This document shows, piece by piece, positions 9,982-60,740 of a DNA stretch of 64,000 nucleotides. The stretch spans positions 44,670 through 108,669 of the forward strand of contig DUDS01000044.1 in the NCBI GenBank assembly GCA_004769085.1. Reading direction: 5' to 3'. Each line of letters begins with the position of its first letter. Within the stretch, counting starts at the first letter, position 1. Both the position numbers and the translations under genes were made by a program. The DNA is from Candidatus Melainabacteria bacterium SSGW_16 (lineage in GTDB: Bacteria > Cyanobacteriota > Vampirovibrionia > 2-02-FULL-35-15). The notes under the pieces are model-generated. The model was not told where the DNA came from and searched no databases. It saw only the letters and a list, made by a program, of their open reading frames with translations.

Positions 9982-10094
9982 GGTTTTGTTCAATTTATTT
10001 GACAAAACCTGTAACCCGTTAAATTTAGTCTATATTAAGTGGACTATGGAAAGGTGGCGAGTCTCATTATGAGCGAGCCACCTGAGTAAAAAAC
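9982..10094 (+). promoter_or_regulatory. GC-rich leader element, copy R1a, upstream of the 113-aa ORF. It has three parts: a hairpin GGUUUUGUC/GACAAAACC at 9982-10009, then CCUGUAAC...AUAUUAAGUGG, then UAUGGAAAGGUGGCG...GCCACCUGAGUAAAAAA containing a 6-codon mini-ORF.
   Basis: Near-identical to the copy at 60490-60534 on the other strand. The mini-ORF ATGAGCGAGCCACCTGAGTAA spans 10069-10089. This is a GC island in AT-rich intergenic DNA. Confidence 0.6.
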
Positions 10095-18479: not shown

Positions 18480-18612
18480 AACAACCTAAATACTTTAACA
18501 ATCTTTAAAAAGTCTTTCTACAGCATTGATGTAATGTAATATATTATATTAATCATGCAACGCAACTACTCAGCTACCACAATAATCTATTAGTAAACAG
18601 TCAACATGGAAA

Positions 18613-18719
18613 GGTTTTGACGATTCATTCGTCAAAACCTGTATAATATTACAAGTGGCAGACCGTGAGCACTTTGCAAAGCCGACAAGCGAAGAATGAG
18701 CGAGGAAGGCGGTGAGTAA
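18613..18719 (+). promoter_or_regulatory. GC-rich leader element, copy R2a, upstream of the aldolase-like gene. It contains, in order: a hairpin GGUUUUGACG-AUUCAUU-CGUCAAAACC; an extended -10-like TGTATAAT; AUUACAAGUGG; then UUUGCAAAGCC...GCGAAGAAUGAGCGAGGAAGGCGGUGAGUAA.
   Basis: The hairpin spans 18613-18639. A possible sigma-70 promoter is TTGACG (18617-18622), a 19-nt spacer, then TG-TATAAT (18640-18647). The mini-ORF ATGAGCGAGGAAGGCGGTGAGTAA (18696-18719) ends 5 nt before the main ATG. The element is paralogous to 34723-34833 on the minus strand. Confidence 0.6.
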
Positions 18720-18724
18720 TTACC

Positions 18725-19648
18725 ATGCAACAAATAACAGAACACTCTTCTGAAACAAAATGCAGAGAAGATTTAACTAAGGTCTGTAACCTTTTATATA
18801 TAAAGGGCCTGATTTCCGGGTTTGATGGAAACATAAGTTTAAAGTCTGATGAAAGAACAATTCTTATCACACCTTTAAACACACATAAAGGGTTAATAAA
18901 ACCTGAGCAATTCACAAAAGTAGATATTAGCGGAGAAATCATATCAGGTGGAAAACCATCCTCAGAACTTGACATTCATCTTGAAGCATATAAAAAAAGA
19001 CCTGATATAAACGCAATTATTCATGCACACCCCCCAACACTTATTTCACTTACTGTAAGCGGAATGAACCTGGATGAGCCTTTAATTCCTGATGTTATTA
19101 ATAATCTTGGCAGTATACCAACAGTACCTTACCCTGGGACAGATAAAGAAAAAGAAAAATCACTTATAGTATCAAGTTTAGAAAATCATGATGCAATTAT
19201 TCTGGAACGTCACGGTGCAGTTACAGTAGGAAGTGATATTTACAGAGCTTTGCACTATACAGAGTTGCTTGAATTTGCTGCAAAGATCATGTTCAATGCA
19301 AAGATTGCTGGTGAGATTTTTCCACTTGATAAATCACAAATAAAAGAAATTTTAAATGAAAGAGAGAAAGCCTGTGGCAGAAATATTGATACAAAATCAG
19401 AATTAAATAATTACTGTAAACATAAAAATAAATTTAATTTAAAGAATCTATTTGCAAAATTATTTGAAGGAAACTCACTGGTATTTCAGAGAATTCTATG
19501 TCTTATAAATGAACTTAATCTGTCAGTCATTTCAAGGACAAGCTATGCAAGTAAACTTACCCATCTGGAAAGAGAAGAATTATCGAGAGAACTGACAGCC
19601 TCATTTATTGGAATGCTGATTGGAAGATTTACAGGTAAAAAGCTTTAA
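18725..19648 (+). CDS. Class II aldolase/adducin-family protein (MtnB/fuculose-phosphate-aldolase-like) with an about 100-aa C-terminal extension.
   Basis: The metal-binding pattern of the aldolase II fold (E...H.H ... IIHAHPP ... ERHGAVTVG) is recognisable in the first 210 aa. Confidence 0.6.
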   Translation: MQQITEHSSETKCREDLTKVCNLLYIKGLISGFDGNISLKSDERTILITPLNTHKGLIKPEQFTKVDISGEIISGGKPSSELDIHLEAYKKRPDINAIIHAHPPTLISLTVSGMNLDEPLIPDVINNLGSIPTVPYPGTDKEKEKSLIVSSLENHDAIILERHGAVTVGSDIYRALHYTELLEFAAKIMFNAKIAGEIFPLDKSQIKEILNEREKACGRNIDTKSELNNYCKHKNKFNLKNLFAKLFEGNSLVFQRILCLINELNLSVISRTSYASKLTHLEREELSRELTASFIGMLIGRFTGKKL

Positions 19649-28892: not shown

Positions 28893-29030
28893 GTGTGTAA
28901 ACAAACCACAGATGACTTAAGTAAGCTCATTTACCCATCAGGCTGAGCGACGAAGGGTGGTCCGTCAGTTCTTGGATAGAGGAGCGAAGCCGGATGCAGG
29001 TAAATGGGCTTACCCTTAAAGAATTTACAC
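28893..29030. promoter_or_regulatory. Conserved GC-rich structured element R3a in the 5' region of purC-purS. It is paralogous to 41937-42058.
   Basis: Nested inverted repeats: GTGTAAA/TTTACAC, CTTAAGTAAGC/GCTTACCCTTAAAG and CATTTACC/GGTAAATG. The core CCCATCAGGCTGAGCGACGAAGGG..TCCGTCAGTTCTTGGATAGAGGAGCGAAGCCGGATGCAGG is shared with the second copy. Confidence 0.6.
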
Positions 29031-34719: not shown

Positions 34720-34722
34720 TTT

Positions 34723-34833
34723 TTACCTACCGCCTTTCTCGCTCATTCTTCGCTTGTCAGGCTTTGCAATGTGCACTTAAAAGATACCTCTTTTCACACC
34801 TTTCAGATTTTACCGAATGAATCGGATAAAATC
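34723..34833 (-). promoter_or_regulatory. GC-rich leader element, copy R2b, directly upstream of nuoA. It has a hairpin GAUUUUAUCCG-AUUCAUU-CGGUAAAAUC, then UUUUAAGUGCACAUUGCAAAGCC, then GCGAAGAAUGAGCGAGAAAGGCGGUAGGUAA.
   Basis: The mini-ORF ATGAGCGAGAAAGGCGGTAGGTAA (34746-34723) stops 3 nt before the nuoA ATG. The hairpin stems differ from copy R2a but keep pairing, and the loop is identical. Confidence 0.6.
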
Positions 34834-34908
34834 TTCCTGCATAAATAGTCAAACCTGATATTGTTACCTAACCAGGTAGTAACAACAATTAATTTATATC
34901 ATACCTTA

Positions 34909-40813: not shown

Positions 40814-41959
40814 TTAGAATCCTAAGATCTTAGCAATCTTATCAATATCTGCTTCAACTTCATGTTCAGCAGTACCTGCATATTTAATAGCAGAATCAGG
40901 ATCTTTTAAACCATTACCAGTTAAGACGCAAACTACGGTTGATTCAGGAGCAATTTTTTTTGCTTTTGCACTTTTAATTAATCCAGCAACAGATGCAGCA
41001 CTAGCAGGTTCACATGCAACACCCTCCATTTGATGAAGGATTTTATATGATTCTATAATTTCCTCGTCTGTTACTACATCTATAAAGCCACCTGAATCTT
41101 TAGATGCCTGAACTGCCTGTTTCCAGCTGGCAGGATTTCCTATCCTGATTGCAGTAGCAATTGTTTCTGGTTTCTCAATAATTTTATTCTGAACAATTGG
41201 CGCTGCACCACTTGCTTCAAAACCAATCATCCTGGGTTTATCTTCTTTTATATATTCACAAAAACCTTTCCAGTAAGCAGTAATATTTCCTGCATTACCA
41301 ACAGGAATAGAAAGTATGTCAGGAGATCTGCCAAGCTGCTCACAAACTTCAAACGCTGCTGTTTTCTGTCCTTCTATTCTGAAGGGATTTAATGAGTTAA
41401 CCAGTGTCACTGGATATTTACTAACAATTTCTTTTACTAGTTTTAATGCTTCATCAAAATTACCTTTTACTTGAATTACTTTTGCACCATAAATCATTGC
41501 CTGAGATAGTTTACCTAAAGCAACATATCCTTTTGGTACAAGAACAAAACATTCCATCTTAAAACCATTTGCTCTTGCCCTGGCTGCATATGCAGCTGCA
41601 CTGGCACTGGTATTTCCTGTGCTTGCACAAATTATTGCTTGTGATTTTTCTTCTACTGCTTTACTTATTGCAACAGTCATTCCACGATCTTTAAAACTTC
41701 CTGTTGGATTTGCACCTTCTACTTTTAAATATACAGACAATCCTGGCACACCACATAATTTTGAAATATGGGATGCAAATACAAGCGGTGTATTTCCTTC
41801 ATTTAAAGTAACTATTGGTGTTTTGTTTGTGATAGGCAAATATGTCTGATAACAGTCAATTATGCCATTCCATGGCTGTGTAAAAATTGTGGATTTGGAT
41901 ATCACAAAGAAATATTTTAGCAGACTGGGCATGGATGAGCATTTAATGTGTGAGCCCAT
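40814..41959 (-). CDS. thrC: Threonine synthase (short, Bacillus-type). The annotated 5' end runs into the R3b element, so the real start is probably internal and may be non-ATG.
   Basis: [31 protein letters not shown] followed by the PLP-lysine [12 protein letters not shown] motif. Confidence 0.85.
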
Positions 41960-42058
41960 TTACCTACATCGGTCTTCGCTCCTCTATCCAAGAACTGACG
42001 GACCCTTCGTCGCTCAGCCTGATGGGTAAACGGCCTCACTTGTAATTTGTTTACACCC
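41937..42058. promoter_or_regulatory. Conserved GC-rich structured element R3b between the divergent thrC and purQ. It is paralogous to 28893-29030.
   Basis: It shares an about 80-nt core with R3a. The closing helix GUGAGCC-CAUUUACC ... GGUAAA-C-GGCCUCAC covaries relative to R3a (GUAAGC/GCUUAC becomes GAGCC/GGCCUC). The 3' tail UUUGUUUACAC.CC is conserved in purQ/purC sense. Confidence 0.6.
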
Positions 42059-42065
42059 CTTAAAA

Positions 42066-42767
42066 ATGCTAAAATTAAACTGTATGAAATTCTCAGTAAT
42101 AATATTTCCAGGTTCAAACTGCGATGAAGACTGTATTCATGTGCTAAAAAATGTGCTCGGTCAGGAAGTAAATAAAGTTTTTCATACTGAAGAAAAGCTC
42201 CTAAAGACAGACTGTGTAGTTATACCAGGAGGATTCAGCTATGGCGATTATCTAAGATCAGGAGCTATAGCCAGGTTTTCAAATATTATTAATCCAATAA
42301 TAGATTTTGCTAACAAGGGCGGCTTAGTAATTGGTACTTGTAACGGTTTTCAAATTTTGTGTGAGGCAGGGTTATTACCTGGTGCGCTCACAACCAATAA
42401 ATCTCTAAGTTTTATTTGCGATGAAGTGTATCTTAAAATATCAAACAGTAAAACAAAATTTACAAGTGAATACAGAAATAATGAAATAATCAGACTACCA
42501 ATAGCGCATGGAGATGGACGTTATATTACAAAAGATTTAAACAAAGAACAAATCATATTTCAGTACTGCAGCAAAGATGGAATTATCAATGATAATTTTA
42601 ATCCGAACGGATCTACTGAGAATATTGCAGGAATAATAAATAAAAAAGGGAACGTGCTTGGAATGATGCCACATCCTGAAAGAGCATGTGAATCCATATT
42701 AGGGAATGAAGATGGAAAAAAACTATTTGCAAGTCTAATTAGCTCATCTATTGCCCTTGTACATTAA
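42066..42767 (+). CDS. purQ: Phosphoribosylformylglycinamidine synthase subunit PurQ (glutaminase).
   Basis: 233 aa. [14 protein letters not shown], the catalytic GTCNGFQIL cysteine motif, and the C-terminal MMPHPER. Confidence 0.9.
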
Positions 42768-44133
42768 AGAACAGATTTTTTTCAATTTGAATGTTATTGG
42801 CATATTTTGCTTTTGCAAGATTTACAGCAGCTTCTGTATTGAGAAGTCCATTACCAAACACAAAATCTTTTCCTGGCTCTCCTAAATCTTCTGCAGACTG
42901 AAACAGTATTTGCCTGACATCCTCAGAAGAAATATCCGGAGCAACAGACCAAATTAATGCTGCTGTTCCAGCTACCTGTGGAGCAGCAAATGATGTTCCT
43001 GAAACTGAGGAATACCCTGAATAAAGTGAAGTGGTATAAATAGATGCTCCAGGTGCTACAAGGGAAACATGATCTCCCAGGGTACTATATGATTCAATTT
43101 TCTTACTGGAATTTACTGCACCAACACCTATAACACCTTCAAATGCTGCCGGGTACCTAACTTCTCTCTCACCTGTATTTCCCGCAGTGGATATAATGAG
43201 TATCCCTCTTTCATTTGCTTCCTGAACTGAATCTTTCAAAACCTGTGAGAACTGACTTGTACTTAAGCTGATTTGTACAATTTTAACTCCTTCAGTATAT
43301 GTACGGTCTAACGCTTCAACCACTGTTGAAACCCTGGCCTGACCATACTCATCTGTTACCTTTATAGGTAATATTTTTGTATTCCATGAAACTCCAGCTA
43401 TACCCTGTTTATTATTTGTATTTGCTGCTATTATTCCGGATACTTCAGTTCCATGACCGATAGCATCGTTTTTGTCTTCCGGTAGAAGATTTTCACTCCC
43501 AAATATTTTTCCTTCCAAATCAGGGTGATTAGCATCAACGCCTGTATCCAGCACACCAACTACCAGCGAATTGCCTTTTGTTGTACCCCATGCTTTTGGT
43601 GCATTTATTTGTCTTAAATAGTATTGGGATGAAAAGTCACTGTCATTTGGTGTTATTTCAAGTTGATCATTCAAAACATCTCCCTCTTTTATATCATTTA
43701 CATTTTCTGCAATGTTGTTACTTTCTCCCTGTGCATTTTCATCTCTTATATTTATCTTTATGTAATTTCTCTCGTCAGAAATCTCATCCAGATAAAATTT
43801 ATAATCAGGTTCTACTGTTTTAAACAAACCGCTATTTTTTAATTCCTGTATCTTAGCAACTTTATCTTCTGAGCTGCTTAAAGGAATAACAAAGAGATTA
43901 CTTTTTACTTTTCTGTAACCAACAATTCCTGCTCTGTACATAAGCCTGTCAAGTCTCCTTCCTCGTTGAGCTTCACTAGAAGGAACAACAATCAATGAAT
44001 CATAATCATCTTCAGAATTTTCTTTTGCACTAACAGCTGAAAAACCAGGTAAAAAAGAAAAAGCAAGAAGTAAAAAGCACATTAATACCCTTAGTGCCTG
44101 TAACTTCCTGCCTGTTACTTTGTAATTTGTCAT
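42748..44133 (-). CDS. Secreted S8-family (subtilisin-like) serine peptidase.
   Basis: Catalytic triad motifs [17 protein letters not shown] and [11 protein letters not shown]. Signal peptide after the [25 protein letters not shown] start. The table's start at 44190 lies inside a GC-rich leader. Confidence 0.85.
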
Positions 44134-44260
44134 TGTTTTGATTCGGTAACCCAGCTGCCCGTTCCGGGCCTGTAGCTTTGCGTCCTGCAATTCCTTGCAG
44201 TTTGCCCTTTCGTCAAAGGCTTAAAAATTAAGCCAAAAAAAACAAAAGTTACTTAAAGTA
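44134..44260 (-). promoter_or_regulatory. GC-rich structured 5' leader of the S8 peptidase gene.
   Basis: In gene sense it shows three hairpins: GGCUUAAUUUUUAAGCC, CUGCAA-GGAA-UUGCAG (GNRA-like loop), and GCCCG-GAA-CGGGC. It is purine-rich with GCAAAGC and GACGAAAGGG motifs shared with the other leaders. Confidence 0.45.
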
Positions 44261-60458: not shown

Positions 60459-60489
60459 AAATTAATTAATTTAATTCTCAAATATTTTT

Positions 60490-60595
60490 TTACTCAGGTG
60501 GCTTGCTCATAATTCGCTGCGCCACCTTTCCATACTACTCCTGGTAAACCAAATCCTCCACAATTCAGGTTTTGCGGAATGAATCGGTCAAAACC
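60490..60595 (-). promoter_or_regulatory. GC-rich leader element, copy R1b, upstream of the 1203-aa ORF: a hairpin GGUUUUGACCG-AUUCAUU-CCGCAAAACC followed by the UAUGGAAAGGUGGCG...GCCACCUGAGUAAAAAAA module.
   Basis: In minus sense it reads tatggaaaggtggcgcagcgaattatgagcaagccacctgagtaaaaaaa, which matches 10045-10094 with the differences concentrated in the hairpin loop. The mini-ORF ATGAGCAAGCCACCTGAGTAA spans 60510-60490. Confidence 0.6.
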
Positions 60596-60740
60596 TTCTC
60601 TAATTAATTAGTTTATTTTAATTACCATCGACATAACTGAGTAATTATTTAAAACATTAAACTCAAAACATTCTATATCCTGTTATAAATTAAAATGTTA
60701 AAAACGAATCACACATTAGAAAGAGCAATAAAGATTAAAT

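Follow-up and report, generated by a model that had tools for sequence, protein, structure and literature searches.

Why should genes as different as an aldolase gene and nuoA begin behind the same small hairpin? The question is raised by a 64,000-nucleotide stretch of the genome of Candidatus Melainabacteria bacterium SSGW_16 (GenBank assembly GCA_004769085.1, contig DUDS01000044.1, positions 44,670 to 108,669 of the forward strand), referred to here as the window and numbered from its first letter. An initial annotation of this DNA described a recurrent hairpin with an invariant AUUCAUU loop and covarying stems, here called P1, upstream of the aldolase gene (copy A), of nuoA (copy B) and of an open reading frame (ORF) of 1203 amino acids (copy C), with a variant upstream of a 113-amino-acid ORF (copy D), and took it for a functional RNA or DNA hairpin. 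The reading favoured here, to which we give a probability of roughly 85%, is that P1 is the internal stem-loop of a non-autonomous MITE (miniature inverted-repeat transposable element) of 162-165 bp, widespread in Candidatus Melainabacteria, and that the surviving copies would be transcribed in the sense direction as a structured leader or intercistronic RNA.

The hairpins themselves are real, and all four were found in place (Table 1). The pattern GGTTTTG-N8-24-CAAAACC has four matches in the window against 0.01 expected from shuffled sequence; three are copies of P1 and the fourth (1360-1394) is unrelated, while the nuoA copy, with arms GATTTT.../...AAAATC, was joined to the others through a repeat finder. 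Folded as RNA, P1 of copy A reaches -17.9 kcal/mol (z -6.4) with a perfect stem, copy B -12.2 kcal/mol (z -3.7) with a single bulged U, copy D -12.3 kcal/mol (z -3.8) and copy C -10.0 kcal/mol (z -3.5). The claim that every stem still pairs holds for A, B and D but only in part for C, in which the inner stem is partly broken. In the predicted fold one extra A-U pair may close the loop, leaving a UUCAU pentaloop.

The hairpin had been regarded as the conserved unit, and its structure is indeed conserved, but the conservation does not end at its edges. Alignment of the four upstream regions extends the similarity from ~50 nt 5' of the hairpin through what had been called GC-rich modules, which adjoin the start codon, and all of this is one 163-bp repeat. 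Each window hairpin forms the stem-loop within a full copy of this 162-165 bp repeat, and an nhmmer profile of the element detects exactly four copies in the window, at the same four sites and nowhere else. Across 55 aligned copies the boundaries are sharp and the length is uniform (162-165 bp). From 5' to 3' the element consists of an AT-rich segment of ~45 nt, P1 (AGAUUUUA.CCG-AUUCAUU-CGG.UAAAAUCU), a variable hairpin P2, the near-invariant UUGCAAAG, a third hairpin P3, and GGCGGUAGG leading into the 3' end. The main subfamily is bounded by terminal inverted repeats (TIRs) of 11-13 bp, 5' GTTACTGCCTA... and ...TAGGCAATAAC 3' (13 bp in locus L141, for example), and subfamily A by GCAAYTACTCAGC and GGTGAGTAATTAC, the ends covarying between the two. 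In copy A the ends pair as a closing helix, both in its own fold and in that of the family consensus; the ends of copy C (TTACTCAG / CTGAGTAA) are complementary, and those of copy D are weak. As to coding capacity, the sole ORF-like feature, ATGAGCGAG...TAA of 6-7 codons, is not conserved. A leader peptide read from it (MSEEGGE and similar) was considered and rejected, since L010 and L042 have no ATG there and many copies carry other sequence in place of the entire P3 segment.

Table 1. Window coordinates of the repeat copies, of the parts of copy A and of the box upstream of copy B
Feature	Position	Strand	Basis or remark
MITE copy D, degenerate, type-2 P3	9932..10096	+	nhmmer E 1.2e-12; P1 variant at 9982-10009
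MITE copy A, 162 bp, subfamily A, between native promoter region and aldolase start codon	18562..18723	+	nhmmer E 1.4e-36; boundaries from the target-site duplication
5' target-site duplication of copy A, CATGCAAC, 8 bp	18554..18561	+	identical 8-mer adjoins both element ends
5' terminal inverted repeat of copy A, GCAACTACTCAGC	18562..18574	+	complementary to 18711-18723 (GGTGAGTAATTAC)
Hairpin P1 of copy A, GGUUUUGACG-AUUCAUU-CGUCAAAACC	18613..18639	+	pattern match, fold, pairing across 53 copies
Hairpin P3 of copy A, GCC...GGC base, loop with non-conserved ATGAGCGAG	18681..18710	+	stem base covaries
3' terminal inverted repeat of copy A, GGTGAGTAATTAC	18711..18723	+	
3' target-site duplication of copy A, CATGCAAC; includes aldolase start codon (18725-18727)	18724..18731	+	
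MITE copy B, main subfamily, between AIM24-family gene and nuoA	34720..34883	-	nhmmer E 1.6e-38; P1 at 34806-34833
Native -10-like box (extended) TGATATAAAT, 8 nt before copy B's 5' end	34892..34901	-	matches empty orthologous loci
MITE copy C, type-2 P3 GGTGGC...GCCACC	60483..60645	-	nhmmer E 1.4e-20; P1 at 60568-60595

That the repeat is a MITE follows from its TIRs, its 8-bp target-site duplications (TSDs) and the existence of empty orthologous sites. Perfect (8/8) direct repeats flank 20 of the 55 copies and 7/8 repeats a further 6, compared with 0.3% perfect when the flanks of different copies are paired; of the 20 perfect duplications, 19 coincide exactly with the aligned ends and the remaining one with shifted ends. 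Within the window copy A has a perfect duplication, whereas none is recognisable for copy B (3/8) and none was found for copy D. In the closest retrievable ortholog of the aldolase locus (L178, 84% identity, same uvrB-aldolase-hemA neighbourhood) the repeat is absent, CATGCAGC is present as a single copy, and the upstream spacer measures 84 bp as against 245 bp in the window. The six orthologous AIM24-nuoA spacers (L179-L184; 70-93% amino acid identity, in the gene order TPR-AIM24-nuoA-nuoB-nuoC) are likewise all without the element. Independent short-read assemblies encoding an identical aldolase end 31 nt upstream of the gene, as is expected where a dispersed repeat lies. The repeat is mobile, has been recently active and targets short AT-rich intergenic DNA, and by its size, TIRs, TSD, lack of coding sequence, dispersed copies and empty sites it is to be classed as a MITE. 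With these duplications, inverted repeats and empty sites, the notion of a regulatory hairpin conserved independently at each gene gives way to that of insertion by a mobile element.

The empty AIM24-nuoA spacer of the 93%-identical relative (L179:1126-1200) contains AAGGTAAGATTTTA, identical to the 14 nt that lead up to P1 in the MITE, after which comes CTTTTGCAAA, to be compared with CACTTTGCAAAG of the element; this sequence is invisible to the profile search and may be what remains of an older copy with an internal deletion. In some copies, small and perfect GC-rich palindromes lie nested within the 5' part (L124, L149, L070) or inside P3 (L124, L161, L162, L170), lengthening these copies to 180-204 bp. 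Examples are GTAGGGGTTTGTCGCGACAAACCCCTAC, with a GTAG head like that of repetitive extragenic palindromic (REP) elements, and CCCGCTTCGCCCGCGAAGCGAGGCGGG, and they suggest that a further REP-like mobile hairpin is present in these genomes.

How far does the family extend? A loose scan with the hairpin pattern, covering one genome per species, gave 112 matches, mostly chance occurrences in coding DNA of unrelated phyla; the downstream modules were shared only by metagenome-assembled genomes (MAGs) of Candidatus Melainabacteria (L010, L042, L070, L071, L072, L079 and L098), in which an identical hairpin, GATTTTATCCGATTCATTCGGTAAAATC, sits before unrelated genes. A stricter pattern applied to metagenome contigs yielded 62 loci, of which nearly all contain the complete element and several share a contig, and the nhmmer profile gave 83 matches in the fetched loci, every full-length one being in Melainabacteria or groundwater contigs. 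Outside the window some 60 copies were recovered, without exception from groundwater metagenomes or MAGs of Candidatus Melainabacteria, and copies from the same population are possibly related. The density of copies can be judged from the four in the 64-kb window and from four pattern matches on one 134-kb contig. By sequence the window corresponds to contig Ga0209726_10000182 of JGI metagenome 3300027815, and NCBI records give its proteins the name Melainabacteria. A fuzzy search for the TIRs returned one unexplained extra end among chance matches: at L145:2153-2165, right after a stop codon, there is an exact 13-nt match to the 5' end of the MITE (GTTACTGCCTACC), followed by unrelated sequence up to the end of the contig (2270), which could belong to an autonomous transposon or to another MITE family with the same ends.

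The larger family also alters the picture of the loop. AUUCAUU was invariant in the small sample on which the initial annotation was based, but copies that were not selected on the loop have ATTTATT, AATGAAT (inverted), TTGG, CTTG or TTTAT in its place, with the outer stem kept. The outer half-sites of P1 lie 12 to 17 nt apart across copies, and a tetraloop is possible; an extruded hairpin accounts for this variable spacing and for the tetraloops better than a site at which a dimeric protein binds duplex DNA. In one otherwise normal copy (L165:7031-7192, minus strand) the loop is reverse-complemented (AATGAAT), apparently having been flipped between the arms. The loop and its closing pairs are also shared by three gene leaders (L131:7512-7539, L165:3815-3842 and the reverse strand of L137, 116-143) that are otherwise without similarity to the 163-bp MITE. 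Their hairpin reads GGATYTRYYCG-ATTYATT-CGRNAAATCC and is followed by GATC and a second hairpin, which has a CTTG loop in L131 and L165 and is succeeded in these two by TATAAAA..ATG; one of the three leaders precedes an apparent UDP-glucose dehydrogenase gene, judged by its N-terminal sequence only. These hairpins may represent a separate repeat family, or the CG-AUUYAUU-CG hairpin may be a functional module by itself.

The second property of the repeat, next to its mobility, is its polarity. It had been proposed that the hairpin has the same sense as the gene downstream of it and lies just upstream of start codons, and the family bears this out. ORFs were called around 62 non-redundant copies, and in the resulting contexts, which rest on simple ORF calls, the upstream and downstream genes are oriented (-,+) in 18, (+,+) in 15, (+,-) in 11 and (-,-) in 2. 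Tandem contexts are the only class that is informative on orientation, and here 15 copies are sense and 2 antisense (binomial p ~0.001). The downstream same-strand gene starts -3 to +13 nt from the 3' end of the element in 26 of 42 cases, and the 5' end seldom adjoins the start of a divergent gene. In the window, the nuoA ATG comes directly after the 3' end of copy B, the 1203-amino-acid ORF starts 24 nt past that of copy C and the 113-amino-acid ORF 120 nt downstream of copy D. Many copies occupy spacers of 10-40 bp between co-directional genes, and the genes downstream are unrelated in function (aldolase, nuoA, kdpB-like, PBP2-like, GlmU-like and others). The surviving copies are strongly polar, with the 3' end typically adjoining a start codon. 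Since the window copies follow their genes on both strands while the cumulative GC skew is monotonic, orientation tracks transcription and not replication. The initial annotation had set a regulatory hairpin against a REP- or MITE-like repeat without orientation bias; a strong bias was found, yet the element is a MITE, and the alternative was therefore a false one.

A third line of evidence comes from the predicted structure. The RNAalifold consensus of 53 copies contains a closing helix formed by both ends, P1, and the base of P3, with 94.6% of cells paired versus 88.9% in shuffled and 32-50% in slid controls, and 13 of its 22 pairs change on both sides. For P1 the compensatory changes reported from the window hold throughout the family, with 7 of 12 pairs changing on both sides and 98.3% of cells paired. 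One pair at the stem base of P3 occurs as UA in 20 copies, CG in 16, GC in 3 and AU in 2, and P3 as a whole is swapped between copies for unrelated sequences, all of them hairpins (CCTGTTTTAG/CTAAAACAGG, CGACACAATTTT/AAAATTGTGTTGCG and GCCCGCC/GGCGGGC). Rfam returned nothing for the element at gathering score or at E<=5. A kissing interaction between the loops of P1 (UCAUUC) and P3 (GAAUGA) is present in standard copies and lost when either loop changes, and was rejected.

The nuoA locus gives the clearest view of what such an insertion lands in. In the six empty loci, all from Melainabacteria, a conserved extended -10-like box (TGTTATAAAT or TGATATAAAT) stands 5-8 nt before the nuoA ATG, and in the window the element is placed between the corresponding box and the ATG. 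This -10-like box is presumably a promoter, and its position suggests that the mRNA of the nuo operon may be leaderless in the Melainabacteria lineage. At the aldolase gene, a promoter-like site (18517-18545) lies upstream of the 5' target copy of copy A.

From these results the following sequence of events can be proposed. The MITE inserts into AT-rich intergenic DNA, generating an 8-bp duplication, and the copies that survive would be transcribed as sense RNA. At some sites this would start at the native promoter behind which they landed, several targets resembling leaderless-type promoters (-10 box 5-8 nt before the ATG); inside operons they would be part of an intercistronic RNA. The transcribed element would then act as a structured leader, its ends paired with each other and P1 and P3 making a compact junction. 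Its 3' end, rich in AGGU/GGAGG (GGAGGGCGGUAGGUAG) and adjoining the start codon, might serve as a substitute ribosome-binding region, being the sole candidate left before the ATG. P1 would be a structural or recognition module of this leader RNA, concerned with stability, processing or the binding of a factor, and selection, whether it acts on the element or on the genes of the host, would retain it, antisense insertions presumably being lost.

Several points weigh against this reading. The patterns through which most of the family was found hold the P1 loop constant. In the window and the ~1.2 Mb of fetched sequence, the fuzzy TIR search turned up no autonomous transposon bounded by these ends. 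Copy B is near-consensus inside and yet without a TSD, which needs either purifying selection or exchange of flanks by recombination. The distances of TAnnnT boxes upstream of the element show no sharp peak over 61 copies, and for this reason a general rule of insertion between a -10 box and the ATG was given up, although nuoA follows it clearly and the aldolase gene, L147, L169 and L170 hint at it. The symmetry of the TIRs places AGG-containing sequence next to the gene in either orientation, so that the ribosome-binding argument alone cannot explain the polarity. Covariation among paralogous copies is partly a matter of inherited subfamily differences. Non-Watson-Crick cells on the sense strand, 75 G.U at 9 sites against 18 A.C at 2 sites, are suggestive of a sense RNA, but this asymmetry is biased, as G.U pairs were permitted in the prediction of the structure and the copies are not independent of one another. 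Sense transcription, a role of P1 as RNA and the substitute ribosome-binding region are matters that we infer from sequence.

Of the other explanations, the one that survives best is also compatible with the MITE identity. P1 and its 3' flank could be an outward promoter or operator carried by the MITE, the hairpin overlapping a -35-like region and the conserved CTG-WATAAT just beyond it on the 3' side forming an (extended) -10; transcription would start downstream of P1, which would act as duplex DNA, for instance as a repressor site. The initial annotation had already pointed to TTGACG in the stem of the aldolase copy, followed by TGTATAAT, as a possible promoter, and this arrangement belongs to subfamily A. 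In most copies of the family P1 is directly followed on its 3' side by a WATAAT-like box whose second position is a near-invariant A, promoters are documented in Correia elements, MITEAba12 and other MITEs (PMC10969869), and an internal promoter facing the 3' end would account for both polarity and start-codon adjacency. The putative promoter in the aldolase copy, however, has a spacer of 19 nt, a consensus sigma-70 scan called no promoter inside copies A, B and C, and the main subfamily lacks a -35-like hexamer at a suitable distance. The half-site spacing of 12-17 nt and the tetraloops are also unexpected for a dimeric duplex-DNA site, and many insertions lie inside operons or right behind a native -10 box, where a new promoter is unneeded. 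On balance a promoter or operator function for P1 appears unlikely, although it is the most serious of the alternatives. Two specific candidates were rejected: a sigma-54 promoter (TGGCA...TTGCA), in which the GG-to-GC spacing is wrong, and a sigma-70 promoter ending at the 5' end of P1 (GTAACA-N17-TATAAG), plausible by eye and uncalled in the window copies scanned.

Somewhat less probable still is a stronger version of the leader hypothesis, in which the MITE would be a portable leader with oriented targeting to, or strong selection at, starts of transcription and translation. P1 would then be recognised by a Melainabacteria-specific factor that binds or processes RNA, and the MITE would have joined dozens of unrelated genes, the nuo operon among them, in a single post-transcriptional regulon. 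A loop-binding factor, like an internal promoter, is putative. A variant of this version, which serves as a lead only, would have the ops-like GGCGGTAG at the 3' end of the element recruit a NusG-type factor. The ops (JUMPstart) element of RfaH is the 12-nt GGCGGTAGnnTG, which acts in the non-template strand of the 5' UTR (untranslated region) with a NusG paralog. The consensus 3' region of the repeat, GGCGGTAGG(T/C)A, matches the 8-nt ops core but not the TG at positions 11-12, and the type-2 copies C and D are without the ops-like sequence.

A non-mobile cis-regulatory RNA motif encoded by the host, that is a 5' UTR regulon with a loop-specific factor conserved gene by gene, was what the locus had first seemed to offer. 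The sense orientation and 5' position of the hairpin, the compensatory changes in its stem and the occurrence of the CG-ATTYATT-CG hairpin in the three leaders of L131, L165 and L137 that are otherwise unlike the MITE would all agree with it. In the window, however, the hairpin never occurs alone, all four examples lying inside a full 163-bp repeat with TIRs and TSDs, and it is missing upstream of the orthologous aldolase and nuoA genes. Moreover, the downstream genes are functionally unrelated, ~11 copies lie between convergent genes where there is nothing downstream to regulate, the loop is variable and Rfam has no match. As the sole explanation such a motif is already contradicted, and we regard it as highly improbable. 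Least credible of all is a REP/BIME (bacterial interspersed mosaic element) or IS200/IS605-derived palindrome moved as single-stranded DNA by a Y1 (RAYT/TnpA) transposase that recognises a bulged-T hairpin, with orientation set by replication. In its favour, the P1 palindrome is imperfect and has an extrahelical T in the main subfamily, there is a strand bias, and some copies contain nested small GTAG-headed palindromes. Against it, TSDs of 8 bp and TIRs of 11-13 bp are the mark of DDE-type insertion, whether cut-and-paste or copy-and-paste, while Y1 elements make no TSD, there is one P1 per element ~50 nt from the 5' end instead of a hairpin at each end, and orientation follows local gene direction on both strands with a monotonic GC skew.

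Among known repeats, the closest counterparts of the MITE include the Correia elements of Neisseria (CREE/NEMIS), which are non-coding MITEs of ~100-160 bp with TIRs and TSDs, present in many copies and located mostly in intergenic sequence near gene starts. Correia elements have 26-bp TIRs and duplicate TA, whereas the Melainabacteria element has TIRs of 11-13 bp and an 8-bp TSD; there is no sequence similarity, and its orientation bias is much stronger and accompanied by a conserved internal hairpin. Correia elements are co-transcribed with their neighbours, their paired TIRs are cut in the RNA by RNase III, and they can carry promoters and a site for integration host factor (IHF) (PMC10969869). 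The enterobacterial repetitive intergenic consensus (ERIC, or intergenic repeat unit, IRU) is also an intergenic repeat, transcription being inferred in the case of the Melainabacteria element. ERIC targets TA and is found in both orientations, whereas the Melainabacteria element is nearly always sense, has an 8-bp TSD and adjoins start codons. In enterobacteria and Yersinia these ~127-bp repeats are transcribed and form a long hairpin in the mRNA, and what ERIC does to transcript level depends on its mode of insertion (RNase E site; PMC10969869).

Nezha and other cyanobacterial MITEs, cited in MITE surveys, have TIRs and direct repeats and belong to the sister lineage; the Melainabacteria family is set apart from Nezha by description (own ends, 8-bp TSD, internal hairpin) and not by direct sequence comparison. 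Like P1, REP and BIME sequences are short palindromes outside genes; REPs are transcribed and can make mRNA more stable, but they are single hairpins of 20-40 bp without TIRs or TSDs, while here the hairpin is one module of a 163-bp element bounded by both. The heads of REPs are GTAG or CGTC (PMC3733652). As an RNA module P1 would, we think, be comparable to the known MITEs that act via promoters, RNase III or RNase E, or IHF sites (PMC10969869). In the literature searched we found no described MITE family tied to Melainabacteria, the sole co-mention being a general survey of insertion sequences.

The window contains two further elements of note. A second repeat of ~100 nt occurs at 28919-29020 (minus strand) and 41943-42041 (plus strand), as well as at L185:603-730, with a core that is ~90% identical. 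Its ends pair (GTAAGC.CATTTACC / GGTAAAT..GCTTAC) and differ between the two window copies by compensatory changes. In the window each copy closely precedes, in the sense direction, a gene of purine biosynthesis (in one case a purC-purS fusion, in the other purQ), and the repeat has no Rfam match. Upstream of purQ it is present in a close relative (84% amino acid identity) and absent from two more distant orthologous loci. A purine riboswitch was rejected on this ground (absence from 2 of 3 purQ orthologous loci), and another small mobile repeat is more likely. The other is a c-di-GMP-I riboswitch aptamer (Rfam RF01051) at 44142-44216 on the minus strand, scoring 65.4 bits against a gathering score of 35, which sits at the 5' end of a subtilase (Peptidase_S8) gene (42748-44190, minus strand).

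What appeared to be a conserved hairpin with covarying stems is accounted for by the biology of a repeat. Any search of Melainabacteria intergenic regions for riboswitches or small RNAs should therefore mask the 163-bp family first, and the same repeat is of practical concern in that it disrupts short-read assemblies of these genomes. The family offers a clean natural case of a MITE replacing the 5' leader of genes, sometimes with the ATG lying inside the target-site duplication. If its polarity reflects function, it would show an uncultured, non-photosynthetic sister lineage of the Cyanobacteria rewiring core genes such as nuoA.

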